A stretch of 24,000 nt of DNA from Chamaesiphon sp. VAR_4_metabat_408 (GTDB lineage Bacteria; Cyanobacteriota; Cyanobacteriia; Cyanobacteriales; Chamaesiphonaceae), in contig JANOPX010000103.1 of assembly GCA_031422115.1 (NCBI GenBank), positions 53,222-77,221 of the forward strand. The letters run 5' to 3'. The translations under genes were made by a program, and so were the position numbers. Each line of letters begins with the position of its first letter. The first letter of the stretch is position 1. Of this stretch, positions 3,491 to 20,680 are shown in pieces. The notes under the pieces were generated by a model. That model was not told the DNA's origin. It did not search any database and saw only the letters and a list, made by a program, of their open reading frames with translations.

Positions 3491-4213
3491 ATGAAATCTC
3501 TGTTCACTGGTCTTTCGGATAAGGGTATGGTACGGAGTGCCAACCAAGATGCGTATCATATCGATCCTGACGGACGATTTTTTATTGTAGCTGACGGTAT
3601 GGGCGGTCATGCAGGTGGCGAAGAAGCCAGCCGCATCGCCATCGAGACGACTCACACTTTTTTGTCCGAGCATTGGGAGACGGCAACCGATGTCGAAAAT
3701 TTGATGAAACAGGCTCTAATTGCCGCCAATGATGCAATCGTTGCCGACCAAGAACAAAACGCTGCTAGGGCTGATATGGGCACTACGGTGGTGATGATTT
3801 TATTCAAGGATGATGTGGCTTGGTCTGCTCATGTGGGTGACTCTAGGCTTTATCGGCTACGCGATAGCAAATTGGATCGCATCACCGAGGATGATACTTG
3901 GGTAGCTAGAGCGATGAAATTGGGTCAACTCACGGCCGAGGAAGCCAAGGTACATCCCCTCCGCCACGTACTATCCCACTGTTTGGGTCGTCGCGATCTA
4001 CGTCAAATCAATACTCAAACTCAAGATATCAAAAGTGGCGATCGCATCCTCCTCTGTAGCGATGGTCTAACAGAAGAAGTCCCCCACGATGAAATTGCCA
4101 GTCATCTCGTCGAAGCTGCATCTAATGAAGCAGCCGCCCAAGCTCTAGTAGATGCTGCCAAACAGCATGGTGGTAGCGACAATATCACCGTTATTATTGC
4201 GGCGATGGTCTAG
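3491..4213 (+). CDS. PP2C-family Ser/Thr protein phosphatase (Stp1/PrpC-like)
   Basis: Contains [49 protein letters not shown] and GGSDNITVI, the canonical PPM metal-binding motifs. Confidence 0.9.
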
Positions 4214-4973: not shown

Positions 4974-7820
4974 ATGACTTCAAATGACCGAGACACAATT
5001 AGGATTCGCGGTGCCAAACAACATAATCTCAAGAATATTAGTTTAGAGCTACCGCGCGATCGATTGATTGTATTTACGGGGGTGTCTGGTTCGGGGAAGT
5101 CTTCTCTAGCTTTTGATACGATTTTTGCGGAGGGTCAACGGCGATATGTGGAGTCGCTAAGTGCTTATGCGCGGCAATTCTTGGGACAGTTGGATAAGCC
5201 CGATGTGGATGCGATCGAAGGTCTGAGTCCAGCGATATCAATCGACCAAAAGTCTACTTCTAATAATCCTCGATCGACTGTGGGTACTGTTACGGAAATC
5301 TATGATTATTTTCGGTTATTATACGGTCGGGCGGGAGTGCCTCATTGTCCAGAGTGCGATCGATCGATCGCTCCACAAACGATCGATGAAATGAGCGATC
5401 GGATTCGCGCTTTGCCAGAGCGAACTAAGTTTCAAATTTTGGCACCGATCGTCAGGGGGAAAAAAGGTACTCACCAAAAAGCTTTATCTAGTCTTGCCTC
5501 GGAAGGGTTTGTCCGAGTGCGGGTGAATGGGGAAGTAAGAGAATTAGCCGATCGAATCGTGCTGGATAAGAATCAAACTCACACGATCGAAATTGTGGTC
5601 GATCGGTTGGTTAATAAGGAAGGGATTGAATCGCGGTTATCTGATTCTCTTACTACCTGTTTGCGTCATGCTGATGGGATTGCGACGATCGATATTTTGA
5701 CAGATGAAGGCGTAGAAGTTAATCCCGATTTACCGACAGAATTAGTATTTTCCGAAAAGTTTGCCTGTCCCGAACATGGCGCGGTGATGGAAGAACTGTC
5801 ACCCAGATTATTTTCCTTTAATTCGCCCTATGGAGCTTGTCCCACTTGTCATGGATTGGGAAGTGCGAAAACATTTGCGCCCGAATTAATCGTTCCCGAT
5901 CCAGATGCAGCAGTATATCACGCGATCGCACCTTGGTCTGACAAAGATAATTCCTATTATTTATCCCTCCTATATAGTTTAGGTCAATCGGCTGGATTTG
6001 CCTTAGATACACCTTGGAAAAAACTTACTCCCGAACAGGTAGCCCTAATTCTCTACGGTAGTGAAGAATTGATTTGGATGGAAGAATTGGACGACCATCG
6101 CCGCTTTAAAGGGGTGGTAAAAATTCTCGATCGGCAATATAGTGATGCCTCGGAAATTCAGAAGCAAAAACTCGAACAATATCTGATCGACCAACCCTGT
6201 AAAGTATGTTCCGGTTATCGACTCAAACCAGAAGCTCGATCGGTTAAATTGGGACAGTATCAGATCCTCGACTTTACCACCGTCGCGATCGATGAATGTC
6301 TCGATCGACTAGCCAAATTAACACTCACCGATAAACAAGCCAAAATCGGCGAATTAGTCCTCAAAGAAATCAAAGCGCGGCTCAAATTCTTACTCGACGT
6401 AGGCTTGGATTATCTCACCCTCGATCGCGCCGCCATGACCCTATCCGGCGGCGAAGCTCAACGAATTCGTCTCGCTACCCAAATCGGTTCCGGCTTAACC
6501 GGAGTACTATACGTCCTCGACGAACCCAGTATCGGACTCCATCAACGAGACAACGGGAGACTCCTCAAAACTCTCAACAAATTGCGCGACCTAGGAAATA
6601 CCCTAATAGTCGTCGAACATGATGAAGACACCATCCGCGCCGCCGACTATCTCGTCGATATCGGCCCAGGTGCGGGCGTACATGGCGGTGAAATTGTCGT
6701 CGAAGGAGATCTTGAAGCACTCCTCAACTCCGAAGCATCAATTACAGGCGCATACCTCTCAGGCAGAGTAGGCATCGAAACCCCAACCACCCGCCGCGAA
6801 GGAAACGGCAAAAATCTAACCCTCAAAAACGCCAGCCGTAATAACCTCAAAAATCTCGACGTAGAATTCCCCCTCGGTAAACTCGTCGCCATCACAGGCG
6901 TATCCGGCTCAGGGAAATCCACCCTAATTAACGAACTCCTTCACCCCGCCTTACAGCATCACCTCACCAAACGAGTACCATTCCCGAAAGACGTAGATGA
7001 ACTCAAAGGAATAAACGCGATCGATAAAGTCATTATCATCGATCAATCCCCCATCGGCCGCACCCCGCGATCGAACCCCGTCACCTACACAGGCGTATTC
7101 GACACCATCCGCGAAGTCTTCACCCAAACCATCGAAGCCAAAACACGCGGCTATAAAGCCGGACAATTTTCCTTCAACGTCAAAGGTGGACGTTGCGAAG
7201 CCTGTAGCGGACAAGGAGTCAACATCATCGAAATGAACTTCCTTCCCGATGTCTTCGTCCAATGCGATGTCTGTAAAGGCGAACGATACAACCGCGAAAC
7301 CCTCCAAGTCAAATATAAAGGCAAATCGATCGCCGATGTCCTCAATATGACCGTCGAAGAAGGCTTAGACTTCTTCCAAAACATCCCCCGCGCCGCCACC
7401 CGCCTCCAAACCCTCGTCGATGTCGGACTCGGCTACGTCAAACTCGGACAAACCGCACCCACCCTCTCCGGCGGTGAAGCCCAACGAGTCAAACTCGCCA
7501 CCGAACTCTCCAAACGCGCTACCGGAAAAACCCTCTATCTCATCGACGAACCCACCACCGGACTCTCATTCTACGATGTCCACAAGCTCCTAGACGTGCT
7601 CCAAAGACTAGTAGACAAGGGAAACTCCATTATCGTCATCGAACACAACCTAGACGTGATTCGCTGCTCCGACTGGACGATCGATCTCGGCCCAGAAGGT
7701 GGTAATAAGGGGGGAGAATTAGTAGCAATCGGGACACCAGAACAGGTGGCGAAGAATCCGGTTTCCCATACTGGGAAATATCTCAAACAGGTACTGAAAC
7801 AACATTCGCGACCAGACTAG
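4974..7820 (+). CDS. uvrA: excinuclease ABC subunit UvrA
   Basis: 948 aa. Starts IRIRGAKQHNLKNISLELPRDRLIVFTGVSGSGKSSLAFDTIFAEGQRRY. Has two ABC signatures ([24 protein letters not shown]), a second Walker A (GVSGSGKST) and zinc modules ([19 protein letters not shown]...CDVCKG). Confidence 0.98.
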   Translation: MTSNDRDTIRIRGAKQHNLKNISLELPRDRLIVFTGVSGSGKSSLAFDTIFAEGQRRYVESLSAYARQFLGQLDKPDVDAIEGLSPAISIDQKSTSNNPRSTVGTVTEIYDYFRLLYGRAGVPHCPECDRSIAPQTIDEMSDRIRALPERTKFQILAPIVRGKKGTHQKALSSLASEGFVRVRVNGEVRELADRIVLDKNQTHTIEIVVDRLVNKEGIESRLSDSLTTCLRHADGIATIDILTDEGVEVNPDLPTELVFSEKFACPEHGAVMEELSPRLFSFNSPYGACPTCHGLGSAKTFAPELIVPDPDAAVYHAIAPWSDKDNSYYLSLLYSLGQSAGFALDTPWKKLTPEQVALILYGSEELIWMEELDDHRRFKGVVKILDRQYSDASEIQKQKLEQYLIDQPCKVCSGYRLKPEARSVKLGQYQILDFTTVAIDECLDRLAKLTLTDKQAKIGELVLKEIKARLKFLLDVGLDYLTLDRAAMTLSGGEAQRIRLATQIGSGLTGVLYVLDEPSIGLHQRDNGRLLKTLNKLRDLGNTLIVVEHDEDTIRAADYLVDIGPGAGVHGGEIVVEGDLEALLNSEASITGAYLSGRVGIETPTTRREGNGKNLTLKNASRNNLKNLDVEFPLGKLVAITGVSGSGKSTLINELLHPALQHHLTKRVPFPKDVDELKGINAIDKVIIIDQSPIGRTPRSNPVTYTGVFDTIREVFTQTIEAKTRGYKAGQFSFNVKGGRCEACSGQGVNIIEMNFLPDVFVQCDVCKGERYNRETLQVKYKGKSIADVLNMTVEEGLDFFQNIPRAATRLQTLVDVGLGYVKLGQTAPTLSGGEAQRVKLATELSKRATGKTLYLIDEPTTGLSFYDVHKLLDVLQRLVDKGNSIIVIEHNLDVIRCSDWTIDLGPEGGNKGGELVAIGTPEQVAKNPVSHTGKYLKQVLKQHSRPD

Positions 7821-7844
7821 CAGTGTCAATTCACTGCTAGTCTG
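7813..7844 (+). terminator. 13-bp perfect hairpin overlapping the uvrA stop codon
   Basis: CAGACTAGCAGTG-tcaatt-CACTGCTAGTCTG (7813-7825 / 7832-7844). No U-tract. It lies just past the point (7807/7808) where homology to the uvrA pseudo-copy ends. Confidence 0.4.
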
Positions 7845-7927
7845 AATGGATAAAGTCGAGCAAAGAAGAGATATAGTTTACGTAGGGGGTATTTAAACAG
7901 CAGAAATCTCGGATTATTAACCTTTTA

Positions 7928-7943
7928 TAGTACTAATGATCTA
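7928..7943. promoter_or_regulatory. LexA-box-like imperfect palindrome TAGTACTAATGATCTA, 40 nt upstream of the AAA+ gene
   Basis: Matches the cyanobacterial LexA consensus as I recall it (RGTACNNNDGTWCB) at 13 of 14 positions. The half-sites are TAGTAC and TAGATC. Confidence 0.3.
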
Positions 7944-7983
7944 AAATAGAGATGTATTCTAAGATGTTGCTGTTTATCGAGCT

Positions 7984-9021
7984 ATGGCAAGGGGGGATAT
8001 ATTACGAAAATTGTTTACCAGCTTCTCTGCTGATGAGAGAGAAGCATTTGTTTCTGCGGCTACAGAACTAATCGAAGAAGAAAAGAGCAAGAATCATACT
8101 TTACTGGCACACGATCTGGAGCGAATACTTCGTAGTGGTAACGGACAATCAAAAACGCTTCGTTTCAATCCTCAGCCTTGGAATGATTTTCCAGAACCAC
8201 CCAAAGACAGGGAAACTGGACTAGCACTACTTTCCGTCAAAAGATTCGATCTTACATGGGAGGAGATCGTCTTGAGTGATTCAGTCAGAAGTATCCTCGA
8301 TCGAGTTGTATTAGAAAATCGGAAACAGGAAATACTTGCGGCTTATGGATTAAAGCCCAAAAATAAATTACTATTTTGTGGCCCACCTGGGTGTGGCAAA
8401 ACACAGACAGCTAAAACACTTGCAAGTGTGATGAGTTTGCCACTCGTCAGTGTTAGTCTTACTGCAATGTTTTCCTCTTATTTGGGAGAAACTGCAACAA
8501 ATCTTCAAAAAATATTCGACTACATCAACGCAGGTGAATGGGTTGTACTGTTTGACGAGTTTGATGCAATCGCCCGCGATCGAAATACACCAAATGAACA
8601 TGGCGAAATTAAGCGGTTAGTTAATAGCTTACTCCAGTTGATAGATCTGTCAGAAAGTAGTAATCTATTTATTGCGGCTACAAACCATGAGAACCTTTTA
8701 GACACTGCTGTTTGGCGAAGATTTGATGAAATTATTTTATTTGAGCGACCCTCCATCGAGATCAGACAAAAATTACTAGGACATTACCTATCTACTATTC
8801 GTTATCGGGAAATAGATCTATTGGCATGTGCTAAACAGATTGAAATGGCAACTGGTGCCGATATTCAGCGGATATGCACAGAGGCTGTGAAATCTGTGAT
8901 TCTCAGAGGTGACAAGGAATTATCCGCAGATGATTTAGATGTTGCTATTGGGAAGTATATTAAGAGAGAGAGCATAGTACATAATTCCACGAAATCCGGC
9001 ATGAGCATTCAGGATGAATAA
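7984..9021 (+). CDS. ietA: classic-clade AAA+ ATPase, IetA-like partner of the downstream S8 peptidase
   Basis: Walker A GPPGCGKT (aa 133-140, nt 8380-8403). Walker B VVLFDEFDA (D191/E192). Sensor-1 and Arg-finger region IAATNHENLLDTAVWRRFD. One AAA module follows a ~120-aa helical N-domain. Its stop overlaps the start of the next gene (ATGAATAA at 9014-9021). The symbol rests on gene architecture only. Confidence 0.6.
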   Translation: MARGDILRKLFTSFSADEREAFVSAATELIEEEKSKNHTLLAHDLERILRSGNGQSKTLRFNPQPWNDFPEPPKDRETGLALLSVKRFDLTWEEIVLSDSVRSILDRVVLENRKQEILAAYGLKPKNKLLFCGPPGCGKTQTAKTLASVMSLPLVSVSLTAMFSSYLGETATNLQKIFDYINAGEWVVLFDEFDAIARDRNTPNEHGEIKRLVNSLLQLIDLSESSNLFIAATNHENLLDTAVWRRFDEIILFERPSIEIRQKLLGHYLSTIRYREIDLLACAKQIEMATGADIQRICTEAVKSVILRGDKELSADDLDVAIGKYIKRESIVHNSTKSGMSIQDE

Positions 9022-11494
9022 TAAATTTGAACATCTGCCATTTAATCGAATCGAAGGCTCATTACCTCGAAGATCTCATGGTGGTGGCAGTGGTGGAGAG
9101 AAGAGAACAGACAGAAGAAGTCAAGGGATACAAATTATTTCACAAATTGGTGAAATCAAAAAAATTGTCCAAGAACAACATAGTAAATTTTCATTAGATC
9201 CAAAACTCATTTTCAAAATTAGGTTGTCTGACAAAAGAAACTTAACAGATGATGATTTAGGAAAATCAGGATTATCGGTTTTAGAAAAGCAGCCAAAAGC
9301 AAATCAAGCAATTGTTGTATTCTCTACAGATCTTGAACTCACTGAATTCACCAATAGGCTAGAGCAGTATAGTGGACTTAAACCTGGATCTGAATATGGT
9401 TATTTGGACGCGATCGAAAGTATTTGTCCACTTGAAGCTGAAGATCGTATAGGTAGATTATTAGAATTGCAACCTTTAGAATTAGAGGAAGTAGCTCTTC
9501 TGGATCTTGAACTGTGGCACACAGGAGATCGGAATGAGATGTCAAAATATCTCAGTGATATTGAGGAGGTATTAAAAAGTATCTCTAATAATCAATCCAC
9601 CTTTAAAATAACAGACAAGTACATTGGTAATTACCTTTGCTTGGCTAGAATTAAGATCGATCGAGAAGTTCTGGATCTATTATTAGAAGAATTTATTGTC
9701 AAAGAAATTAACCGTCGTCCTCATCCGGCTTTTGAGAGTAGATCTGAATATAATCCACCTTTATCTTCATTACCAGATCCAGTCCCTCCCGATCCTAATA
9801 GTTGTGGTATTGTCGTTGTTGATTCTGGTATTCAACCTGGACATCCTTTGCTATCCTCTACTATTGGTGAAGCGGAAGTCTTTTTAAGTAATAGTCAAAA
9901 AGCAACAGGTGGAGAAATCGATCGTTCTGGTCACGGTACTGGTGTTTCTGGCATTGCTGCTTATGGAGATATAGAGAAATGTATCCTTTCTAAGGAATTT
10001 AGATCTTCGGCTAGTATATTTTCTGCAAGAATTTTGGATGATAAAGATGAATATGATGAATATTTATTATTAGAGAATCAACTAGAAGAGGTCGTAAATT
10101 ATTTTACAAAAAATTACCCGAAAATATGCCATGTTTTTAATTTATCTATAGGCAATTGTGATTCAATTTACAATTCAGGCGATAAGCAATTTAGATTAGC
10201 AGCTAAACTCGATGAAATAGCTTATCGATATCAAGATTACGATCTTGTTTTTGTTGTATCAGCAGGAAATGCAAAACCATTCTCCTCAGAGGAAGGAGAG
10301 CGTTATCTTACAGATTATCCTAAATATATTCTCGATTCAAAGTCACGAATAATAGATCCAGCCACATCTGCAATTGCAATTACTGTAGGATCGTTATCTC
10401 TTGGTCGAGGTAGTATAAATAATCCCAATGATGCACAAGTCAATTCGGTTGCAAAAATCAGAGGATATCCATCTCCATTCACCAGAACTGGCTTTGGTGT
10501 CGATGGGATGATCAAACCAGATGTTGTTGCCTATGGTGGTGATTTTGTTATTGACGGAAATCGTATTATGGGTGATGTAAATGCAGCCGTTTCTGTTATT
10601 ACATTGAGTTTGTCTAATATAAGCGGAAAACTCTTTACGATATCTAGTGGTACAAGTCTTGCTGCTCCTTATATATCAAACTTAGCAGCACAATTATTTA
10701 ACAAATATCCTAAAGCATCATCGAATTTAATTCGAGCATTAATAGCCAATTCTGCAAGTTTACCATCACAAATACCAAATGAATTTCAGATAGGATCTGG
10801 ATTGTCTGAAAAAGACAAGACAGCGCAAATGGCTAAACGACTTTCTGTTTATGGATATGGGCAACCTAATCTAGAAAGAGCTATGTATTCAATGGAGAAT
10901 GACGTAGTGCTAGTATGCGATCGTGTGGAAATGGAAATTGGTAATTTTCATGTCTATGAAATACCTGCTTTACCTCCTGAGTTTTTAAAAAATAAGGGTG
11001 AAAGGACTTTATCAATCACTATGGCATTCGATCCACCAACTCGTCATACTCGTGGAGATTCTTATTTAGGTGTGACAATGGGATTTAGTCTTTTCAAAGG
11101 TGTTGATATTGAAGATGTATTGAACAGTTTTGTTGATGCAAAAAAAGCTAAAGAGAATGGGATAGAAGATGACTTTCAGGAGCTTTCAATAGATAATCTA
11201 AAGCAAAGGTGTGGCTCTACTTGCCAGCTAGATTTAAAGCCAGGATCTAGTATAAGAAAAAAAGGAACTCTTCAACGTGGTCAGCTCAAAATCTCAGATA
11301 AAGCAACTAAGTTCGATCTGCCTTTTTATTTAGTTGTAATTTCAAATCGAAAATGGGCAAGACAAGAAGAAATTAAGTTGCAACGATACTCTTTAGTCAT
11401 TTCACTTACACACACAAATGAAGAGGTGAAAGTCTATCATCAGATTCAAACAAAAATTCAGGAACGTTCCAGACAGAAACTTCGGATCAGATAA
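9014..11494 (+). CDS. ietS: S8 (subtilisin-like) serine peptidase, no signal peptide, with ~260-aa N-terminal and ~170-aa C-terminal extensions; IetS-like
   Basis: Catalytic triad in subtilase order: D270 (GIVVVDSGI), H307 (SGHGTGVSG), oxyanion N419 (VSAGN), S548 (SGTSLAAPY). The N-terminus MNNKFEHLPFNRIEGSLPRRSHGGGSGGEK is hydrophilic, so the protein is predicted cytoplasmic. An 8-nt overlap with the AAA+ gene suggests translational coupling. Confidence 0.65.
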   Translation: MNNKFEHLPFNRIEGSLPRRSHGGGSGGEKRTDRRSQGIQIISQIGEIKKIVQEQHSKFSLDPKLIFKIRLSDKRNLTDDDLGKSGLSVLEKQPKANQAIVVFSTDLELTEFTNRLEQYSGLKPGSEYGYLDAIESICPLEAEDRIGRLLELQPLELEEVALLDLELWHTGDRNEMSKYLSDIEEVLKSISNNQSTFKITDKYIGNYLCLARIKIDREVLDLLLEEFIVKEINRRPHPAFESRSEYNPPLSSLPDPVPPDPNSCGIVVVDSGIQPGHPLLSSTIGEAEVFLSNSQKATGGEIDRSGHGTGVSGIAAYGDIEKCILSKEFRSSASIFSARILDDKDEYDEYLLLENQLEEVVNYFTKNYPKICHVFNLSIGNCDSIYNSGDKQFRLAAKLDEIAYRYQDYDLVFVVSAGNAKPFSSEEGERYLTDYPKYILDSKSRIIDPATSAIAITVGSLSLGRGSINNPNDAQVNSVAKIRGYPSPFTRTGFGVDGMIKPDVVAYGGDFVIDGNRIMGDVNAAVSVITLSLSNISGKLFTISSGTSLAAPYISNLAAQLFNKYPKASSNLIRALIANSASLPSQIPNEFQIGSGLSEKDKTAQMAKRLSVYGYGQPNLERAMYSMENDVVLVCDRVEMEIGNFHVYEIPALPPEFLKNKGERTLSITMAFDPPTRHTRGDSYLGVTMGFSLFKGVDIEDVLNSFVDAKKAKENGIEDDFQELSIDNLKQRCGSTCQLDLKPGSSIRKKGTLQRGQLKISDKATKFDLPFYLVVISNRKWARQEEIKLQRYSLVISLTHTNEEVKVYHQIQTKIQERSRQKLRIR

Positions 11495-11542
11495 ATATAG
11501 AGACTCAATTATCCCCTCAACTAACGATCGTGCCGTTACCCC

Positions 11543-11776
11543 ATGCAAATAACTATTAACCTAGATGAATCCTTGCTAGCAGAAGCTCTGCAACTCACCA
11601 AATTCACCACCCATGAAGAACTAGTGAACTTAGCTCTGCAAGAACTCGTGCGTTCACGAAGTGGCTCCTTGGGAGCATCGCGTCGCAAGAAAAATCTCCT
11701 CGACCTTGCAGGACAGATTCAACTTACAGATGACTTCGACACAATCCCAAAACTCTCCAAGATTACAACTAATTAA
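11543..11776 (+). CDS. VapB-family (type II) antitoxin-like protein, no cognate toxin gene downstream
   Basis: MQITINLDESLLAEALQLTKFTTHEELVNLALQELVRSR...KKNLLDLAGQIQLTDDFD fits the small VapB_antitoxin pattern (xTxIxIDDxLLxEAxxL...ELVxxALRELV...LxxLxG). The next 370 nt contain no ORF. Confidence 0.6.
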   Translation: MQITINLDESLLAEALQLTKFTTHEELVNLALQELVRSRSGSLGASRRKKNLLDLAGQIQLTDDFDTIPKLSKITTN

Positions 11777-12149
11777 ACATAAGCATAAAATATAACCCAC
11801 ATTCCGCACTTCAATTTTTACAAAAAGCAATCCATAGCTAAAATCAACTGAGAAGTATATTGTTGATATTGTAAATATCAACAATAAGAGTAAAATGAGT
11901 ATGACAATTTTCTAGTCTTTGCCGAGCTTTAAGAACTAATTGGTCTGAGATATTTAATAATGGTTGTGAGAACAAAGCTTTTTAATACATTATAACTAAA
12001 TTTAAGTGGCTGAATAGTATTGCTGACAAGCTCCAGGTAAAAACTCCAGAAATGGCATCGATTTAGGAGTAGTCACAATCTGGCTACATGAATCAGTAGA
12101 CAAACAATTTAGATTCATCACACTAATTCCAGATTAAGAGGATAAACTC

Positions 12150-12365
12150 ATGAAGCCCAAGCTATTTGAAGAAGTTATTATAAATCGCGATTTCCCGGAA
12201 TATAATATCGACAAGGGAGATATTGCAGTATTAAATGACTTTGTTACCGATCCTTTGGGGGAACAAGGCTGTGTATTGGAAATTTATACGGCGATGGGTG
12301 CTTTTGTAACGGTAGTAAGTTTACCTGTGACAAGTATAGAGACTTTGCAACCAACAGATAGATGA
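12150..12365 (+). CDS. DUF4926 domain protein
   Basis: 71 aa. LFEEVIINRDFPEYNIDKGDIAVLNDFV...GCVLEIYTAMGAFVTVVSLPVTSIETL matches my recollection of the DUF4926 pattern (short SH3-like proteins). A good AAGAGG Shine-Dalgarno lies 8 nt upstream. Confidence 0.55.
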   Translation: MKPKLFEEVIINRDFPEYNIDKGDIAVLNDFVTDPLGEQGCVLEIYTAMGAFVTVVSLPVTSIETLQPTDR

Positions 12366-12446
12366 TCGGTGAGAAGTTGTGTGAATGTTTAGAGATTACG
12401 GATGAAGATTTTAAAATTGCTGAGTTTCAGGGAGATTTAAAGTAAG

Positions 12447-12725
12447 ATGGATATTCAAAAAACCTTGGGCGATTCTCTATCCGATACGCTGCTAGCTCGC
12501 CAGATTGTGCATAGCGATCCAGATATTATGTCAGGTATACCAGTATTTATAGGTACCCGTGTACCGCTTCAAACTCTGTTCGATTATCTTGAAAGTGAAG
12601 AGGGTTTGAACGAATTTTCAGAGGATTTTCCACATCTAAAAATATCTGCGATTCAAGTTTTGGAAGCTATCGCTCGAATCATGCTCTATCAAGGCGAAAT
12701 TCTTAATGCTCATTCTATTGGATGA
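12447..12725 (+). CDS. DUF433 domain protein (putative antitoxin-like partner)
   Basis: IVHSDPDIMSGIPVFIGTRVPLQTLFDYLESEEGLNEFSEDFPHL is the DUF433 core (P.I..G.PvI.GTRipv..i...l..G). It overlaps the next gene by 20 nt. Confidence 0.75.
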   Translation: MDIQKTLGDSLSDTLLARQIVHSDPDIMSGIPVFIGTRVPLQTLFDYLESEEGLNEFSEDFPHLKISAIQVLEAIARIMLYQGEILNAHSIG

Positions 12726-13065
12726 AAATCTTCTAAGTCGAAAACTTAAACAGCCGATTGTTGATGCTGGCTATACTGTTCATAATGTTGATAATATGGG
12801 ATGGCGTGGAACAAAGGATCGAGATCTATTAGCTTTAGCAGATGCTCATCCCTTTGATGTTTTTATCACTGCTGACAAAAATTTACCTTACCAACAAAGT
12901 ATTAGTACTTACCAACTGAGAATTGTTGTCCTAAACACTAAAACTACTAAACCTGACTATCTTGTACCTCTAATAGAGCAAGCTTGTTTGATAATTCCTA
13001 CGCTTGCGGCTGGATCGGTTACACTCATCAATGACGATCGACAAGTTATGTCATTTCAGCCATAG
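12706..13065 (+). CDS. DUF5615 family PIN-like (Mut7-C-like) protein, putative toxin partner of DUF433
   Basis: MLILLDENLLSRKLKQPIVDAGYTVHNV...DRDLLALADAHPFDVFITADKNL fits the typical DUF5615 N-terminus and acidic residues, and the gene shows the usual pairing with DUF433. Confidence 0.7.
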   Translation: MLILLDENLLSRKLKQPIVDAGYTVHNVDNMGWRGTKDRDLLALADAHPFDVFITADKNLPYQQSISTYQLRIVVLNTKTTKPDYLVPLIEQACLIIPTLAAGSVTLINDDRQVMSFQP

Positions 13066-13081
13066 AATTTAAGATAAATGA

Positions 13082-13115
13082 ACGGCTCTCCTTCGCCTAA
13101 GTGGAAGAGAGCCGT
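13082..13115. terminator. hairpin between convergent genes (DUF5615 gene and zorC-like)
   Basis: ACGGCTCTC (13082-13090) pairs with GAGAGCCGT (13107-13115) around a 16-nt loop. It lies in the 75-nt gap between two convergent stop codons. Confidence 0.45.
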
Positions 13116-13140
13116 ACTTAAACAACATACAACCTAAAGC

Positions 13141-14565
13141 TTAACAATCAGTATATGCTCTTGCCTCTACTTCTATTGCGATAATCTCGGATCGCCATCG
13201 AGCTAAACCTCTCTCTCGATCGAGTTCTTTATAAGATTCTGGTTTTCGAGCAGGTGGAATTCCTGGATTGAGAAAAATACCTTTGCTAAATAGCAACTGC
13301 TCGTAATAATATTGCCAAAGATACTTATGGTCGTGAACTTCACCTCCAAGACGGCGAAGACACTTAACAGATAGTTTGTGAGAACCAAAAAGTTGTTGCT
13401 CGATTTCATTATTACGGGCGAACAAACGTATTTCACTACCCTTGCCACGAAAAAACTCGACAACAAAATAACTCCCAAAATCAAAAATGCAAACTTCCGT
13501 AGCTTCGCTACCATCACGTTTGAGAATTTCTATATCGGCTATAAAACCATCACCGCATAAATCGATCGAGTCCTGCGGTACTAAAATCCGAATACGTTGA
13601 AATCTATTAGTGTACTTAGCCCAAAATTCCCGACGTTGTTTTAATCGGTTTTCATCCCAAGAATCAATCCGCAAAACTTCCAGTAGCGTGTCTATTAGAT
13701 TTGCAAAGTCATTATAGTTAACAGAACCAATCCAATCGCGCAAAGCTTGTTTTGCATTTTCAGAAAGCCGATGCCAGAGATCGCCTGTTGTCCTTGGTCC
13801 ATAGGATCTCTGTAACCATTCTACCAATGGAGTTAAAGTACCACCTAATGCTTTTGTTTTCTTCTCGGTGAGAATGTAATCCACCGCTTTTAGTTGTTGC
13901 TCCACCATCATTTTGTCTAAGCACTTTATTAGCCAGTCAACTTGCTCGATAGTTGGATTTTGGCAAAATATAGTAGCTACATATTCCAAAGCATCGATCG
14001 TAATCGCCATCTCAGATGGCAGTTGAGCCTTTTCGAGTAGCTGCTGTGGTGTTAATAAATGTGCATAAGCAATTTTTGCTAGCTTAGAAGCAGGTTGATT
14101 TCCACTTATTGCTTGAATAATAGATCCAAACAGGGGTTTTATTTTCTGAATTTGCTGCAAAAATTCGGCAAGGCACTCTACTAAACTAAGAGCTAAAACT
14201 TGCTGATAATTACCATAATGTAAAGCCAATTGCCAACACAGGATTTGGCGTAGCCATGAATCGGACATTGCTAGTTGCCAAATTGTTCTAGATGTAGACA
14301 CCGATTGATTTAGATGTTCTCGATCCCATTCTTCTTTCGTGTGAATCAGATAAACCCATTCTAATGCACTCACAGAGTCAGCTCGATCGCTTTCAATATC
14401 TATGATAATTTCATCAATACTTCGAGCTTGAAATGGCTCAATATTTAGCAACTTACTTAACTCTGTAAAATCATCACTACCAAGTTTTTCAGCTAATTCG
14501 AGCAGTTGACTCGACGGGTACTGTCTTTTCTTGGAGAAATCAAATAAAAAAGATGGGAATTTCAT
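13141..14565 (-). CDS. zorC: ZorC-like protein (probable EH-signature domain)
   Basis: 474 aa. Third gene of the MotA/MotB-like operon (ATG 2 nt after the zorB-like stop). The C-terminal third reads RREFWAKYTNRF...CIFDFGSYFVVEFFRGKGSEIRLF...GGEVHDHKYLWQ. A conserved-looking Glu (E370) and a His cluster (H411/H413) lie ~40 residues apart, as I expect for the EH_Signature family (PF15611). Not verified by search. Confidence 0.55.
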   Translation of the reverse strand: MKFPSFLFDFSKKRQYPSSQLLELAEKLGSDDFTELSKLLNIEPFQARSIDEIIIDIESDRADSVSALEWVYLIHTKEEWDREHLNQSVSTSRTIWQLAMSDSWLRQILCWQLALHYGNYQQVLALSLVECLAEFLQQIQKIKPLFGSIIQAISGNQPASKLAKIAYAHLLTPQQLLEKAQLPSEMAITIDALEYVATIFCQNPTIEQVDWLIKCLDKMMVEQQLKAVDYILTEKKTKALGGTLTPLVEWLQRSYGPRTTGDLWHRLSENAKQALRDWIGSVNYNDFANLIDTLLEVLRIDSWDENRLKQRREFWAKYTNRFQRIRILVPQDSIDLCGDGFIADIEILKRDGSEATEVCIFDFGSYFVVEFFRGKGSEIRLFARNNEIEQQLFGSHKLSVKCLRRLGGEVHDHKYLWQYYYEQLLFSKGIFLNPGIPPARKPESYKELDRERGLARWRSEIIAIEVEARAYTDC

Positions 14566-14567
14566 AC

Positions 14568-15245
14568 TTATTGCTTTAAATTACTCCCGTTATTTATAGC
14601 TAGATCGAGCTGTTCTCCTTTGAATTGAAAGCGGAACATTACTTTTCGATCCTTTTCATCTATTTTACTATTTGCCTCGATCGCACCTCTTCCTGCTGCT
14701 AAAATTTTAGTTTTCAGCAGTCTCTTTGTTGAAAATCTGATATCTTTAGATAGAATATACTTGGAAACTGAAAGAGATCGAAGCAAGCTTAATTCCAAGT
14801 TTTTATCTTCATCTCCTTCTGAGCTAGTGTGACCCTCAATTACTACTCGTGTGATTTGCTGGGCTATCTCTTTATTATTGGTGTCAAAAATTATTTCACT
14901 GTATTTAGGAATAAATTTATTAAGAAAAGTTTTACCCTCTGGCTTGAGAATGGAACTATTCTTATCAAATAAAATCCCATCTTTAATAGTGACATCTCCA
15001 TTCGCAGCATTAACCTCTGCTTTTATATCAGCAGCTTGTAACTCTTTTGTTAGTGTGTTGATGAAACTTTGCTTTTGCTTGCCAAGCTTTTCTTGAGACT
15101 CTTTGAGTTGAATTAAAGAAGTAACAAATAGCAGTAAAAATAGAAAAAACAAGCTTGACATCAAGTCACTGATGGACAAATAAATACTTGCAGTTTGTTC
15201 ATCATCACCTTCAGATTCTGGTTCGACAACATCATAATCTATCAT
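14568..15245 (-). CDS. zorB: ZorB-like MotB/OmpA-family stator protein (TM plug helix with Asp, plus OmpA-like peptidoglycan-binding domain)
   Basis: N-terminal TM helix with the stator Asp (IYLSISDLMSSLFFLFLLLFV). C-terminal OmpA-like block (FDKNSSILKPEGKTFLNKF...RVVIEGHTSSEGDEDKNLELSLLRSLSVSKYIL). Confidence 0.75.
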   Translation of the reverse strand: MIDYDVVEPESEGDDEQTASIYLSISDLMSSLFFLFLLLFVTSLIQLKESQEKLGKQKQSFINTLTKELQAADIKAEVNAANGDVTIKDGILFDKNSSILKPEGKTFLNKFIPKYSEIIFDTNNKEIAQQITRVVIEGHTSSEGDEDKNLELSLLRSLSVSKYILSKDIRFSTKRLLKTKILAAGRGAIEANSKIDEKDRKVMFRFQFKGEQLDLAINNGSNLKQ

Positions 15246-15454
15246 GTTTAGTTATCTCCCTGCTCTTGACGACGGATCTTTTCAGTCGCAACTAAATAAT
15301 CGGCTGCTTTCAATAGTGTGTTGCATAGCTTGGCTGTAGAACTGTCAGCTTCTTCAAAAAACTTTTGCTCATGTACGATTGCTCGCTGAAAATATTCTGA
15401 TAGCTGCTCATTACCTATTCTGAGAGAGTCTTCATATCGAGTATTTAGACTTCG

Positions 15455-17158
15455 CTAAGAACGCTCTAAATTATTGATTTGTACTCCCATATCCTGTGAA
15501 AGTTCTTGCATCTGAGCAATCCGTGCCCCATCATGCAACCCGACAGTGTTCACTAACTTGCTCACAACTCCGGCTGTACGTTGAATTTTTTCTAAATTAT
15601 CATCTAATTGTTGAGATAGTTGTTTTCGTCTGTCTGCTTCTTCTTGGAAAGCTATCTGGAGTTCAATCACAACATCGGATAAACCTTGACGCTGTGTACC
15701 TAGAGTAGATTCTAATAAATTATTCTGCTCTTTAAAGAATTTATCTAGAGACTCTTGATAAGTTTCACGAAAATTATTTAACTCATCTTGCACTGTTTGA
15801 CTAGTATCTTGCAACATTCCATCGATATTTCCGAGCGTACCTAATAAACTATCCCTTGCCGTATCCATCAGGGTAGATGCTGTATCGCCTACTAATTTAA
15901 GCGTGTTGCTCTGTTGTTGAAAAGCTCTATCTGTATTTGATAGGATTGTATTCATCCGATCTTCAACATTCTGAAGCATTTGCTCTTGACTCGCAGTTTG
16001 CTTAGTGAGTGCTAATTCTAATTCAGTCCGAATATCTCTAAAGGTGTCGGCAGCTTGAGTAGTACTGTCAGAAAAAGCCTCTTGTTGAGCCTTCATACTA
16101 ATGATACTTTCCTCAACTCCTCGTTTAATTTCTGCTCCAACATTTTGAAGCATTTTTTCTTGGCTTTCAGTTTGGGTGGTGAGTGCTGATTCTAATTTAG
16201 TCTGAATACCTATAAAGGTGTTAGCTGCTTGAGTGGTACTATTAGAGAAAGCTTGTTGTTGAGCCTTCATACTAATGATACTTTCCTCAACTCCTCGTTT
16301 AATTTCTACGCCAACATTTTGGAGCATTTGCTCTTGGCTGGCAGTTTGGGTTGTGAGTGCCGCTTCTAATTCAGTCCGAATACCTGTAAAGGTTGTAGCT
16401 GCTTGAGTAGCACTGTCAGAGAAAGCCTGTCGTTGAGATTTCATACCTACGATACTTTCATCCACCCCTCGTTTAATTTCTTCACCTACTTCTTTTAGGA
16501 CATCTTTCGTTCCAGTCTGAAAGTCAACTAATGTATTGCCTAAATTATCTGCAAATCCTTCTAGCTGAGATAATGTTTTTCCTTGAAAATCTTGGATAGT
16601 AATAATTGATAAAGCTAAATCCTTCGATACACTACCCAGTTCATTCTTGAGGCTGATAACTGCTTCTGAAGCTTCTTTTGTTGAACTTGCACTTTCTTTT
16701 AACTGGGAGGATATAGGTACAATAAATTCATCTCTTAGTTTTAAAAGTATATCTTGACCTTGATCTACTTTAAATCCACGTAAGCTTTCTAACTCTTCAC
16801 TGATTTTAATAAAGATTGGGGCAAGAGCTTTTCCAACTTCAACACCAATAGATTTAGAGTCTAGGCTCTGCATCTTTTCCGCAGCATTTATTAATTCTAT
16901 TGATACATTTTTCTCAAATTGAGGTTTGTAATTAAGAATAGATAGTCTTCTTCTTAAATATTTTCTATATATATTTTGAGCATAAGTACTAAAAGCCAAA
17001 AATACGATAAAAAAAGCAGCACATCCTAAACCAAATAGTGACGACATAAATGCTGTTTTCATGCCACCTAGCAGTGTATCAACTCCCGCCTGAAGATTTC
17101 TGGGATCCAGGTGAGAAAGCGCGATCTGAATACCCCAAAAAGTACCCAGCAAACCCAT
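15455..17158 (-). CDS. zorA: ZorA-like MotA/ExbB-family channel protein with ~500-aa helical tail; the tracked ORF is only the central part of a disrupted ~747-codon frame (15248-17490)
   Basis: The ORF begins inside the MotA/ExbB pore motif (MGLLGTFWGIQIAL). A further TM helix follows (AFMSSLFGLGCAAFFIVFLAF), then a long Q/E/T-rich helical tail. The same frame stays open 156 codons upstream and encodes another TM helix (YFSITTIAIFIFAIF), but with no in-frame ATG/GTG/TTG. After the TAG at 15455-15457 the frame continues for 68 sense codons to TAA 15248-15250. See findings. Confidence 0.7.
   Translation of the reverse strand: MGLLGTFWGIQIALSHLDPRNLQAGVDTLLGGMKTAFMSSLFGLGCAAFFIVFLAFSTYAQNIYRKYLRRRLSILNYKPQFEKNVSIELINAAEKMQSLDSKSIGVEVGKALAPIFIKISEELESLRGFKVDQGQDILLKLRDEFIVPISSQLKESASSTKEASEAVISLKNELGSVSKDLALSIITIQDFQGKTLSQLEGFADNLGNTLVDFQTGTKDVLKEVGEEIKRGVDESIVGMKSQRQAFSDSATQAATTFTGIRTELEAALTTQTASQEQMLQNVGVEIKRGVEESIISMKAQQQAFSNSTTQAANTFIGIQTKLESALTTQTESQEKMLQNVGAEIKRGVEESIISMKAQQEAFSDSTTQAADTFRDIRTELELALTKQTASQEQMLQNVEDRMNTILSNTDRAFQQQSNTLKLVGDTASTLMDTARDSLLGTLGNIDGMLQDTSQTVQDELNNFRETYQESLDKFFKEQNNLLESTLGTQRQGLSDVVIELQIAFQEEADRRKQLSQQLDDNLEKIQRTAGVVSKLVNTVGLHDGARIAQMQELSQDMGVQINNLERS
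15964..16485 (-). repeat. three tandem 174-bp (58-aa) repeats inside the ZorA-like tail
   Basis: Units start at 15964, 16138 and 16312 (caacatt[c/t]tg[a/g]agcatt...). Protein units: LKEVGEEIKRGVDESIVGMKSQRQAFSDSATQAATTFTGIRTELEAALTTQTASQEQM / LQNVGVEIKRGVEESIISMKAQQQAFSNSTTQAANTFIGIQTKLESALTTQTESQEKM / LQNVGAEIKRGVEESIISMKAQQEAFSDSTTQAADTFRDIRTELELALTKQTASQEQM, then a degenerate fourth start (LQNVEDRM...). Confidence 0.9.
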
Positions 17159-17511
17159 TGCTGTTAATACAGATGGAATGAAATGTACCTCGCTGCGAGG
17201 AATTGAGCAAGATAGAGATTTTGTACATCTGAGAAAAATGGCTTCTTTATCTCTTATATCTTCTATAAATTCACTCTTTTGACGATCGGAATAATCATCA
17301 ATGGATATCCATACTCTTTGTAAGAATATCTCTATTTGCTTGTTTGGATGCGTGAATTTATGACTACAATTTGGATCGAGGTACTTTATTAGTGAATTTT
17401 CATAAGCAATTCGTTCTCTGGCAACATAAAGTTCTCGAAAAATTGCAAAAATAAATATTGCTATAGTAGTGATTGAAAAATAAGATCCACTAGATATAGT
17501 CCTGATTTTGA

Positions 17512-17862
17512 TTAGTTGTTTTGAGTAAAGCGATCGAGTTCTGCTGATGATAGATGTTTTTGTGCAACTCTTACAGGTAAATGTTCTACATTCCAGCGAG
17601 TATCTATAGGTTCCCGCAGATGCAAACTATACAAAGGTTCATCCGATAATCGATCGTCAAGTGCTAAATAAACTTTTCCTAATGGTGCATAGTTGCGTAA
17701 TAGTCAAATCTGCTTGCAGGTTTTCAAATCGCGGAGGGATTGAGCTAATGGGGCGTTTTGTCGATCGTCGAATAGTTCGCACGCTTCCTTCCAAGCATGG
17801 TTGAGAGCGACGATTTCTGCCACTAGTTGCTCGATCGAGGGGTTAAGTAGATCTGTCATCAT
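17512..17862 (-). pseudogene. small ORF (116 codons) at the head of the Zorya-like operon, interrupted by an in-frame TGA at 17704-17706
   Basis: My translation: MMTDLLNPSIEQLVAEIVALNHAWKEACELFDDRQNAPLAQSLRDLKTCKQI-TGA-LLRNYAPLGKVYLALDDRLSDEPLYSLHLREPIDTRWNVEHLPVRVAQKHLSSAELDRFTQNN-TAA. Both halves look protein-like and are in the same frame. I do not recognise the family. Confidence 0.45.
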
Positions 17863-18102: not shown

Positions 18103-18368
18103 CCCGCGATCGAACCCCGTCACCTACACAGGCGTATTCGACACCATCCGCGAAGTCTTCACCCAAACCATCGAAGCCAAAACACGCGGCTATAAAGCCG
18201 GACAATTTTCCTTCAACGTTAAAGGTGGACGTTGCGAAGCCTGTAGCGGACAAGGAGTCAACATCACCTTTAATGAACTTCCTCCCCGATGTCTTCGTCC
18301 AATGCGATGTCTGCAAAGGCGAACGCTACAACCGCGAAACCCTCCAAGTTAAATATAAAGGTAAATCG

Positions 18369-18393
18369 TTGGCGTAGCCTCTCTGGAGGAGAC
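18369..18393. repeat. 24-25-nt mini-insertion (TTGGCGTAGCCTCTCTGGAGGAGAC) in the uvrA pseudo-copy
   Basis: Intact uvrA reads aaatcgAtcgccgatg (7324-7339). The copy reads aaatcg[ttggcgtagcctctctggaggagac]tcgccgatg. The insert introduces an in-frame TAG. Confidence 0.8.
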
Positions 18394-18746
18394 TCGCCGA
18401 TGTCCTCAATATGACCGTCGAAGAAGGCTTAGACTTCTTCTTTAAACATCCCCCGCGCCGCCACCCGCCTCCAAACCCTCGTCGATGTGGGACTCGGCTA
18501 CGTCAAACTCGGACAAACCGCACCCACCCTCTCCGGCGGCGAAGCCCAACGAGTTAAACTCGCCACCGAACTATCCAAACGTGCCACCGGGAAAACCTTA
18601 TACCCGATTGATGAACCCACCACCGGACTCTCATTCTACGATGTCCACAAGCTTCTAGACGTGCTCCAAAGACTAGTTGACAAAGGAAACTCCATTATCG
18701 TCATCGAACACAACCTAGCCGTGATTCGCTGCTCCGACTGGGCGAT

Positions 18747-18771
18747 TCTCTTGACAGAGAGGCTACGCCAA
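18747..18771. repeat. 25-nt mini-insertion (TCTCTTGACAGAGAGGCTACGCCAA), the inverted copy of the 18369-18393 element
   Basis: Intact uvrA reads gacgat|cgatctcgg (~7679-7693). The copy reads ggcgat[tctcttgacagagaggctacgccaa]cgatctcgg. A 17-nt core (CAGAGAGGCTACGCCAA) is the exact reverse complement of 18369-18385. Confidence 0.8.
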
Positions 18772-18995
18772 CGATCTCGGCCCAGAAGGTGGTAATAAGG
18801 GCGGAGAATTAGTAGCAGTAGGAACGCCAGAACAGGTGGCGAAAAATCCGAAGTCCCATACGGGGAAATATCTCAAGCAGGTGTTGAAACAACATTCAGC
18901 CATGAAAGCTTAACCACGGAGTTTAAGATCGTGCCAGAACTATTAAGTCCAGATTCCCAATATTTAAGCGAATTAATACTGGAGGATTATCTCTA

Positions 18996-19769
18996 TTACC
19001 TCAAGAGTTGCGTCATGCTCAACGGCTGATAATCATCCCCTGCAAATGGTTTGAAATTTCGTTCGTGGAGAGTCTCTGAGACTAAGTTACATTCGGCTGT
19101 CAGATTACACAACAATCGAAATTGCATTGGTGTTGGAGAGGGATTTACGCGATCGATTGTTACTTTTACTTGTTGAGGGTGTTCCTGAAGCATTCTGAAA
19201 ATGTCTTGAGACAAATATCGAGGGCAATATCCGAGATTATAACGATCCTCAGTGTGTAGCAATAAAGACTTTGAATCGTAGGAATTTTGCCAATCATGGC
19301 TGAGATATAAAATATCTCCCTGTTGTAATTGTAAGGCTTTGTCGATCGAGCATTTCGGCATATACCGTAAGCCACGTACAAAGAAATGAGTATAATAATT
19401 CCCCTTTTCATTAATTTCTGGACAGGGGAAAACTTCATAAGTATCTGTTGCTTTACCGCCACCACTTCTCGATAAAACTGTCATCGGATTGTCTTCACCT
19501 TCAGGAATATTTAGAGATTCAATATATTTTAGATAATCAGGACGAGAACGAGACATCAACCGATTAGAAAATAGTGGAAAAAGCTCTGTCGAACTATAAG
19601 TCTTGTCTAGCTCTGGCAAAGAATAAACCGAAGTAAAACCTTCGCGCCTAGCCTTTTCAACTCCTTGAATGTAGAAAAAATGATATTTGTTACCATCAAA
19701 TTCTAGACAGCCGATCGGAAACCAATGACGACTCTTAGGTTCTTTCCATGCTAAGAATAGCTTTTTCAT
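18996..19769 (-). CDS. HipS-like (HipA N-subdomain-like) + C-terminal HIRAN domain protein
   Basis: The N-terminal part (KLFLAWKEP..WFPIGCLEFDGNKYHFFYIQG...ELFPLFSNRLMSRSRPDYL) resembles the HipA N-terminal / Couple_hipA region. The C-terminal part (FFVRGLRYMP...LQQGDILYLSHDWQNSYDSKSLLLHTEDRYNLGYCPRYLSQDI) fits the HIRAN pattern (G.ry....l..Gd.l.L..e..N.yD..Ai.v.....lGY.Pr). Its start overlaps the kinase stop (ATGA, 19766-19769). Confidence 0.6.
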   Translation of the reverse strand: MKKLFLAWKEPKSRHWFPIGCLEFDGNKYHFFYIQGVEKARREGFTSVYSLPELDKTYSSTELFPLFSNRLMSRSRPDYLKYIESLNIPEGEDNPMTVLSRSGGGKATDTYEVFPCPEINEKGNYYTHFFVRGLRYMPKCSIDKALQLQQGDILYLSHDWQNSYDSKSLLLHTEDRYNLGYCPRYLSQDIFRMLQEHPQQVKVTIDRVNPSPTPMQFRLLCNLTAECNLVSETLHERNFKPFAGDDYQPLSMTQLLR

Positions 19770-20680
19770 AGTTGTTCTCGAAACTTTAATAATTTATCTC
19801 GATTGTGATTTAATATATTTTGAGCAAATTCAATAGCAGTGGCAGATATTCGATTTTCAGGAATACGCTGGAGCAATTGGAAAGTATCATTCTGCGATCC
19901 GGTTTCCAAAATATTTAGCCACACACAAGCAGCTTCGGGGCATAGTTTAGCAGCTTTGGCAAAGGATTCAAAAGCTTTAATTGGTTTCGATTGTCCAATA
20001 TTATAGAAGGATGAATCACACCGATCGGCATAAGCTCCTACGGAATAACCTGTGTCGCTAGTTTTGAGTCTTTTCAATCTCTTATCATCAGATTCATTTC
20101 TGCCTAAACTCGAAGCATGGTCATAAGTTGGTGCTAAATAAAGTTGTCGTTCGAGTTCTATAAATCCCCAATTTTCATGATGTCTATCGCTATTACCAAT
20201 CCAAGCATCTAAAAGTAAATAACCAACAAAAACATGATGGACTTTGATGATATTTTCCAGTGGTTCCCAACCTAAAGGCATTAATACTTCTGAAAGATCG
20301 TCGAAAGCACTAAAAATTCGTTCGATCGTATGCTGAGATAAATTTCTAGTATCTGTTGGGTAATCTGAGTATATTCTAGCTAAAATTTCGTTGCCAAGCA
20401 TAAGATTACCATTTTTAGGCAAAAACGATCGAGAGATAACTCCGTATTCACCATTACATGTTGCTAGTTCGTATTTAGCATGGGGAAGTTTTAGCAACTG
20501 ACACAATTCGGCTGCTATTTTTTCCGACCAATCTTCGCCTGCTGTTTTCGATCTAGACTTTTTGTACAAGCACCAGCCTAGTTGCTCGTGTCTGAACCAG
20601 AACTTTTCCTTTGTTCCTAGTGATTCCTGCTCTTCAGGAGCTTCTAGCGAAACTTCAAATATTTGGAATCTTTCAGTCAC
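19766..20680 (-). CDS. short HipA-homologous Ser/Thr kinase (core kinase domain only, HipT-like)
   Basis: 304 aa with a GTG start. Gly-rich-loop-like SLGTKEKFWF, catalytic motif IGNSDRHHENWGF, and a following APTYDHASSLG. It lacks the N-terminal subdomain of full-length HipA. Confidence 0.7.
   Translation of the reverse strand: MTERFQIFEVSLEAPEEQESLGTKEKFWFRHEQLGWCLYKKSRSKTAGEDWSEKIAAELCQLLKLPHAKYELATCNGEYGVISRSFLPKNGNLMLGNEILARIYSDYPTDTRNLSQHTIERIFSAFDDLSEVLMPLGWEPLENIIKVHHVFVGYLLLDAWIGNSDRHHENWGFIELERQLYLAPTYDHASSLGRNESDDKRLKRLKTSDTGYSVGAYADRCDSSFYNIGQSKPIKAFESFAKAAKLCPEAACVWLNILETGSQNDTFQLLQRIPENRISATAIEFAQNILNHNRDKLLKFREQL

Follow-up and report, generated by a model that had tools for sequence, protein, structure and literature searches.

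The DNA analysed here is a stretch of 24,000 nucleotides (nt) from the cyanobacterium Chamaesiphon sp. VAR_4_metabat_408 (contig JANOPX010000103.1, positions 53,222 to 77,221 of the forward strand), hereafter the window, whose minus strand carries between positions 13141 and 17862 an operon related to the Zorya defence systems. This region is probably a recently inactivated copy of a Zorya lineage that lacks ZorD, is found mainly in cyanobacteria and comprises four genes: a small leading gene (lead, provisionally 'zorX'), zorA, zorB and zorC. An earlier note, made from the letters of the window, had placed four co-oriented reading frames in this interval and described the last three as ZorA-, ZorB- and ZorC-like. 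All four frames are present and tightly packed, and searches with the hidden Markov models (HMMs) of PADLOC and Pfam bear out the three identities:

17512-17862, minus strand: leading open reading frame (ORF), lead or provisional 'zorX', 116 codons, pseudogene
15248-17490, minus strand: zorA pseudogene, natural stop at 15248-15250; PADLOC ZorA1 model PDLC00597, E=3.4e-212; Pfam MotA_ExbB, E=5.7e-8
15964-16481, minus strand: 3 x 174-bp tandem repeat (58-amino-acid units) in the ZorA tail; Tandem Repeats Finder: period 174, 3.0 copies, 84% matches
14568-15245, minus strand: zorB, intact, 225 amino acids (aa); PADLOC ZorB1 model PDLC00609, E=3.3e-66; Pfam OmpA, E=7e-11
13141-14565, minus strand: zorC, intact, 474 aa, EH-signature protein; PADLOC ZorC1 model PDLC00618, E=3.8e-160, matched end to end

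Assignment of the operon genes

The 474-aa protein, proposed in the note to be a ZorC with an EH-signature domain, matches the Pfam family EH_Signature (PF15611) over residues 208-419 with E=1.2e-22 and 81 bits, for a cut-off of 27.5. Matches to the remaining ZorC1 models of PADLOC were weak (E=1e-5 to 4e-3), and the NCBIfam cut-offs were reached by neither ZorC nor ZorA. The residues E357, D362, E370, E378, K401, H411, D412, H413 and W417 are invariant in the family and all retained in the window copy. Among them, E370 and H413 lie 43 residues apart, which is the spacing of E400 and H443 in the ZorC of Escherichia coli, a correspondence by spacing alone. The AlphaFold2 model of the protein has a mean predicted local distance difference test score (pLDDT) of 82. 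ZorB has a transmembrane (TM) helix and an OmpA-like domain for peptidoglycan binding; just ahead of the helix, a 'SISDLM' motif contains the stator aspartate, Asp27, which 98% of 71 homologues share. Moreover, the window protein keeps all the residues conserved at a level of at least 95% in the family. As the note had stated, zorB and zorC are both intact.

The ZorA gene would encode three hydrophobic helices followed by a tail of ~575 aa. Its motor region also matches the ZorA2 models of PADLOC (E ~1e-16), and the ZorA homologue of locus L002, one of the two closest intact relatives, matches the Pfam family ZorA-like_t1. For the A/B pair as a whole, Zorya models score far higher than generic stator models (for ZorA, E=3.4e-212 against 5.7e-8 for MotA_ExbB), and a flagellar or Tol/Exb origin of the pair can therefore be set aside. 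The three tandem repeat units in the ZorA tail of the window compare with a single unit in the closest intact relatives, L001 and L002, and across the family (ZorA genes of loci L007-L086) the protein ranges from 533 to 843 aa and carries from none to three modules of 58-80 aa. In this regard, the integrity of the ZorA tail was reported to be essential for defence, and its length was suggested to be functionally important (Hu et al. 2024, PMC11946911).

Neither the ORF listing nor the PADLOC and Pfam scans revealed a ZorD- or ZorE-like ORF in the window, in agreement with the earlier description of an operon with an extra leading ORF and no ZorD/ZorE effector. Altogether, the individual ZorA, ZorB and ZorC proteins are already fitted by PADLOC HMMs with type I names; the architecture of the operon and its fourth gene appear to be undescribed.

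A recurrent four-gene set and its leading gene

A scan with a ZorC profile, taking one genome per species, returned 80 loci, nearly all of them from named cyanobacteria including Nostoc, Calothrix, Rivularia, Phormidium, Kamptonema, Halothece, Chlorogloeopsis, Pleurocapsales and others. When all the ORFs of at least 80 aa were called and clustered in 86 loci, only four families were conserved, namely ZorC (86 loci), ZorB (78), ZorA (74) and lead (67), with the fifth-ranked family present in just 27 of the 86. Lead, ZorA, ZorB and ZorC are all intact in 52 of the 68 loci that span the whole operon, many of them wedged between housekeeping genes. In this line, the relatives L001-L003, with 82-85% ZorC identity, keep an intact lead of 114-138 aa, a ZorA of 587-636 aa, a ZorB of 225 aa and a ZorC of 474 aa, and have no ZorD. 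The genes found beyond the operon in close relatives are unrelated to it, SRAP in one case and RloB/AAA_21 followed by uvrA in another, and even the loci of the most distant ZorC matches (33-35% identity) consist of these four genes with housekeeping flanks. Copies of the module lie on defence islands or have housekeeping genes as immediate neighbours. Complete genomes with an intact locus include Nostoc carneum NIES-2107 (AP018180), Chlorogloeopsis fritschii PCC 6912 (CP170746), Nostoc linckia NIES-25 (AP018222), Calothrix sp. NIES-4105 (AP018290) and Stanieria sp. NIES-3757.

This survey of clustered and annotated ORFs, which included no ZorD-seeded search, revealed no ZorD at a distance of up to 10 kb from zorC in any of more than 80 loci. 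When 34 large neighbouring ORFs were compared with PADLOC, the 25 families listed, out of 125 matched, did not include ZorD, a result that leaves room for a weak ZorD cross-match on one or two Snf2 proteins; what this comparison did show were scattered proteins of DISARM, Dpd, BREX and Cas3 type (DrmD, DpdE, BrxH and Cas3), in 2-3 loci each. The Pfam annotation of the neighbours at L001, L002, L087-L089 and L094 contained neither SNF2 nor Mrr domains. Where the earlier note had allowed for intact loci that always include a ZorD-like gene, the outcome was the opposite, as intact loci never have one adjacent. Other neighbours were considered as further components and rejected. The recurrent ones in Nostoc are TerC (240 aa, downstream), SpeA (arginine decarboxylase), NDK and ScpA, and represent ordinary synteny; the larger member of an upstream pair of 404 and 189 aa is a PilC-like (T2SSF) gene, the smaller having no Pfam match; and PGM (phosphoglucomutase) merely flanks a few loci.

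Homologues of lead, of ~110-115 aa and 45-87% identity, lie directly upstream of zorA in the 67 loci mentioned above, and share the motifs NHAWK, LRDLKxxLQVRLLRxYAP, EPLYxL and AEHLPVRVA. The median ratio of non-synonymous to synonymous substitution rates (dN/dS) was 0.235 for lead, 0.26 for zorA and 0.29 for zorC, and all four genes of the operon are under purifying selection. Judged by its sequence conservation, lead is a real gene under purifying selection and a genuine fourth component. A word-seeded search returned 111 homologues, the named ones being all cyanobacterial 'hypothetical proteins', and HMMER, run exhaustively against 1.84 billion representatives, yielded 150 lead clusters, nearly all of stand-alone proteins of 100-140 aa. 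Among the collected homologues, P0298 is a fusion in which an N-terminal Zn-ribbon (Zn_ribbon_4) is joined through a linker to lead, encoded directly upstream of a ZorA gene. The lead sequence has no match in Pfam, PADLOC (E<0.01) or NCBIfam. Its AlphaFold2 model, with a mean pLDDT of 91.5, runs from a helical hairpin through a three-stranded sheet to two short helices. The family is acidic, with a median isoelectric point (pI) of 5.4, and ZorC is mildly basic, with a median of 8.1.

Distant homologues of lead were also found in two loci, that of P0320 and L094, which have the gene order lead-ZorB-ZorA-ZorC and lie on contigs with a guanine-cytosine (GC) content of 0.61-0.68. The high-GC loci occupy positions 579-5455 of L089, beside BREX genes, and 6510-11446 of L094, in an integrase island with NERD-kinase and MmeI-like genes. 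The best PADLOC models for their ZorA and ZorC are still PDLC00597 and PDLC00618, and a search intended to bridge from the ZorC of L089 to the canonical ZorC clades returned this lineage only. Lead, unlike ZorD, thus tracks this ZorA/ZorC lineage beyond the cyanobacteria. Gene calling in L094 had overlooked lead and reported an ORF on the antisense strand instead.

Lesions of the window copy and its genomic island

The lesions of the window copy were defined by alignment with the intact relatives L001 and L002. In lead, codon 53 is a TGA (17704-17706) at a position occupied by arginine in 92% of the homologues. In zorA, the GTG start (17488-17490) is preceded by an AGGA motif at 17500-17503, nine bases upstream, and is followed after codon 5 by a net deletion of 1 nt, as a result of which the frame ends after 9 codons; this deletion is most parsimoniously read as the shortening of a run of six T to five at 17476-17480. 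Farther downstream, a TAG at 15455-15457 replaces a tyrosine present in 98% of the homologues and removes the last 68 residues of the tail. The coding lesions that the earlier note had reported in the zorA-like gene and the leading ORF are all confirmed by these comparisons. The TAG of zorA recurs in L006, an independent assembly from Logan that matches the window at 100% identity over 3112 bp and covers the TAG only, not the homopolymer deletion or the lead TGA. A near-identical metagenome contig, L005, which differs from the window in 9 of 3565 nt, one ZorB residue being changed and ZorC unaltered, has a TAC (tyrosine) at this site. A stop codon that is reproduced in one assembly and absent from another argues for an inactivation that is very recent and still polymorphic, and the combination of the lead TGA with the early frameshift and the late TAG of zorA makes it most likely that the system of the window is non-functional.

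Two further variant forms of lead were noted. P0128, whose allele is closely related to that of the window, has retained Arg53 and diverges past residue 63, and P0289 is a deletion product that fuses lead residues 1-74 to the end of the ZorA tail. Broken copies are also found elsewhere, as 16 of the 68 fully covered loci (24%) have at least one truncated or missing gene, a count that may include assembly artefacts (L013, L029, L032, L034, L036, L037, L050, L056, L058-L060, L065, L070, L071, L075 and L083). Many of these 16 are metagenome-assembled genomes of Nostoc. Decay of the operon is thus common and not peculiar to the window.

The operon sits on a low-GC island of ~10 kb (GC content 0.35-0.40, against 0.47-0.52 in the flanks), which is bounded by the stop of an intact uvrA gene (4974-7820) and by a frameshifted copy of the uvrA 3' end that begins ~10.3 kb beyond it. 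The island and its right-hand neighbour contain the following features:

7821-13140, plus strand: rest of the island, from the uvrA stop to zorC, of low GC content, with IetA, IetS, VapB-like and DUF433/DUF5615 genes
7984-9021, plus strand: IetA, AAA ATPase, intact, 345 aa; PADLOC E=1e-87
9014-11494, plus strand: IetS, subtilase, intact, 826 aa; PADLOC E=1e-118
11543-11776, plus strand: VapB-like antitoxin, 77 aa, with no obvious toxin ORF behind it
12447-13065, plus strand: overlapping DUF433/DUF5615 pair, convergent on zorC
13082-13115, no strand: perfect inverted repeat of 9 bp, loop of 16 nt, lying between the stops of zorC and the DUF5615 gene, which converge
18103-18897, plus strand: remnant of the uvrA 3' end that closes the island on the right; 88% nt identity to uvrA 7064-7807 (~750 bp), split by tblastn over three frames
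18996-20680, minus strand: PDC-M03 candidate (PADLOC), with a HipA-like kinase of 304 aa (E=6e-114) and a HIRAN-domain protein of 257 aa (E=9e-87)

The IetA/IetS defence pair follows uvrA directly, and the PDC-M03 pair lies past the uvrA remnant and short of tatC, where the GC content drops a second time. A comparable arrangement is found in L002, where uvrA 3' fragments (55-388 and 5038-5333) stand on either side of the Zorya cassette and the cargo is different (RloB/AAA_21). The 3' end of uvrA is a hotspot at which islands insert, and the uvrA 3' copies that flank both islands suggest serial integrations, each of which restored this end. Defence genes are neighbours of the module in several settings: IetAS and PDC-M03 in the window, RloB/AAA_21 in L002 and BREX in L089. 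On the other side of the operon, zorC is separated from the next gene (DUF5615) by only 76 bp, with no ZorD fragment among them. The hairpin and the convergent toxin-antitoxin (TA) genes that the earlier note had placed here are found as the inverted repeat and the DUF433/DUF5615 pair; the repeat was not called by the terminator scan and is a putative terminator. Among the small TA-like genes (11543-13065, plus strand) there is also a weak DUF4926 ORF. Upstream of uvrA, a PP2C-type phosphatase of 240 aa (3491-4213, plus strand) matches PADLOC PDC-M21C with E=5e-13 and adjoins an ABC1-family kinase gene (1549-3357); it is probably a housekeeping gene. The window also carries genes for Thf1 and TatC, which mark it as cyanobacterial.

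Place among Zorya systems, rival readings and significance

Type I Zorya is reportedly composed of ZorABCD (Doron et al. 2018; Hu et al. 2024, PMC11946911). The operon of the window resembles it in having a MotA-like ZorA whose three TM helices are followed by a long helical tail, a MotB-like ZorB with the aspartate and an OmpA-type domain and an EH-signature ZorC, in the co-oriented and tightly packed A-B-C order of these genes, and in the type I names of its best PADLOC models. It differs in that type I includes ZorD, a Snf2-type helicase-nuclease that this lineage has neither in the operon nor within 10 kb in the loci surveyed, in the extra conserved gene of ~115 aa before zorA, and in the lead-B-A-C order of its high-GC branch. 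With type II (ZorABE) the lineage shares the ZorAB core, but here zorC directly follows zorB, and no ZorE or other HNH protein was detected by PADLOC among the window ORFs scanned. Type III is ZorGABF, with ZorG (DUF2894) upstream and ZorF (DUF3348) downstream of zorAB (Payne et al. 2021, PMC8565338). It is similarly a set of four genes, with one accessory gene upstream of zorA, another downstream of zorB and no helicase-nuclease. The parallel of G-A-B-F with lead-A-B-C is an analogy of gene order only, as lead and ZorC have no ZorG, ZorF, DUF2894 or DUF3348 match (PADLOC/Pfam, E<0.01), and the downstream gene is an EH-signature ZorC. MotAB, ExbBD and TolQR share with the locus the MotA_ExbB channel domain, the conserved aspartate of the B subunit and an OmpA-like domain; the long coiled-coil tail of the A subunit, the EH-signature partner and the defence-island context set the Zorya locus apart from them. 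In short, the Zorya core (ZorA and ZorB) and the ZorC of type I are there, and the ZorD of type I, the ZorE of type II and the ZorG/ZorF of type III are not. Literature searches for a type IV or a cyanobacterial variant of Zorya found none, the searchable literature containing types I-III only (PMC11946911, PMC11890865, PMC8565338) and no ZorABC without ZorD and with a leading small gene. By its stated methods, one Zorya survey explicitly left non-canonical gene sets out (PMC11946911).

Several other explanations of the locus have to be weighed. The earlier note leaned towards a remnant of a canonical type I ZorABCD operon that lost zorD by deletion, a case of simple decay for which speak the three coding lesions of a decaying copy and best HMMs that are named ZorA1, ZorB1 and ZorC1. 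We find it hardly credible, since lead is present and ZorD absent in every intact relative (33-88% ZorC identity), with housekeeping genes often abutting zorC, and since the 76 bp behind zorC in the window hold no ZorD fragment. The 52 loci that are intact with exactly lead-ZorA-ZorB-ZorC and no ZorD neighbour argue that zorD was not lost by decay here. The decay seen in the note is real, with lead and zorA as the decayed parts and not a lost zorD, and its alternative suggestion of an unrecognised Zorya variant gains support, for the lineage, from the recurrence of the four-gene set in cyanobacteria. It is also unlikely that we are dealing with a functional type I-like system in which ZorD or another nuclease is encoded in trans and lead is merely accessory. 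ZorC does act with ZorD in the systems studied (PMC11946911), and our search covered the loci; but the described Zorya types all keep their effectors within the operon, and the cassette moves as a unit, having settled at the uvrA hotspot, on integrase islands and in spaces between housekeeping genes, a behaviour hardly to be expected of a system that needs a gene encoded elsewhere. What the lineage conserves instead is a specific fourth gene.

A non-immune role, in which the ZorAB-like envelope motor would serve a housekeeping purpose such as a cell-wall or septal function in filamentous cyanobacteria, agrees with the conserved synteny between housekeeping genes in ~27 Nostoc loci, and the antiviral role of the lineage is itself drawn from context. 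This possibility seems quite remote in view of the patchy distribution across genera with differing insertion sites, the linkage to IetAS, PDC-M03, RloB/AAA_21, BREX, integrases and TA genes, the 24% of broken loci and the wide variation of ZorA tail length, all of which are typical of defence genes. Finally, the window copy could be functional, its lesions being assembly errors or being bypassed by slippage on the T run or by stop-codon read-through. A frameshift in a T5/T6 homopolymer would fit such a case, as would the intact zorB and zorC with all their conserved residues and the few differences from L005, which spare ZorC and touch a single residue of ZorB. We consider it improbable, since the TAG is reproduced in L006, two separate nonsense substitutions at residues conserved in 92-98% of homologues are untypical of assembly errors, and three independent lesions in one operon point to relaxed selection.

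The preferred reading, an inactivated copy of a ZorD-less lineage, has a number of points against it as well. Every gene was needed in the type I systems of E. coli and Shewanella, where the partial gene sets put to the test included ZorABC lacking ZorD (PMC11946911, PMC11890865). Phage defence by lead and ZorABC would be deduced from defence-island context and homology, and our search for ZorD was made on loci and not on whole genomes, so that a ZorD elsewhere in the genome is possible. The fold of lead gave no Foldseek match below E=0.06 in PDB or BFVD, neither of which offered a relative with a known function, and any role assigned to lead is conjectural. No solved ZorC structure was returned for the ZorC of the window from PDB, either by phmmer, by a 23-sequence profile or by Foldseek with the AlphaFold2 model, so that a structural equivalence to the E. 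coli ZorC is hypothetical. As to the lesions, the 1-nt deletion sits in a homopolymer, where an assembly error is possible, and the lead TGA is seen in one assembly.

How such a system might work can be outlined from type I. There, a 5:2 motor of ZorA and ZorB, driven by ions and anchored to peptidoglycan, responds to disturbance of the envelope (Hu et al. 2024, PMC11946911; Mariano et al. 2025, PMC11890865), and defence depends on ZorD (Hu et al. 2024, PMC11946911). In the ZorD-less lineage, a ZorA5B2 motor would detect the perturbation of the envelope at phage entry, the long ZorA tail, whose length varies by the modules described above, would relay the signal to the cytoplasm, and ZorC would engage DNA through its EH-signature region. 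Given the need for ZorD in type I, the lineage must either use ZorC differently or use lead in the place of ZorD. Lead would then be a lineage-specific fourth subunit standing in for ZorD, and its acidic character together with the lack of nuclease-like features makes a regulator or adaptor of ZorC or of the ZorA tail likelier than a nuclease. It might, as a tentative suggestion, be such a regulator or adaptor, for instance by restraining ZorC or the tip of the tail until activation. On this view, the last antiviral step would fall to ZorC itself or to some factor recruited from the host. In its strongest form, the lineage would be an autonomous fourth type of Zorya with no helicase-nuclease, in which lead, whose fold has no known relative, is a new subunit that controls ZorC or the ZorA tail. 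Immunity would then come from ZorC alone, which would bind or sequester DNA where the phage enters, or from membrane effects driven by ZorAB. We regard this proposal as quite possible, if short of probable, and were it true, ZorC would have an effector role independent of ZorD.

Current models of Zorya pair ZorC with ZorD, and the lineage described here keeps ZorC, never with an adjacent ZorD, plus a protein of ~115 aa. Rule-based tools would score it as 'incomplete', and defence censuses of cyanobacteria would consequently miss it. The genome of the window has it only in pseudogenised form, on the defence island next to the 3' end of uvrA. For the family as a whole, the ZorA tails of varied repeat number make up a natural series for asking how tail length matters, and the lineage is a natural experiment on the action of ZorC without ZorD, with a new subunit to be placed on the ZorA tail.

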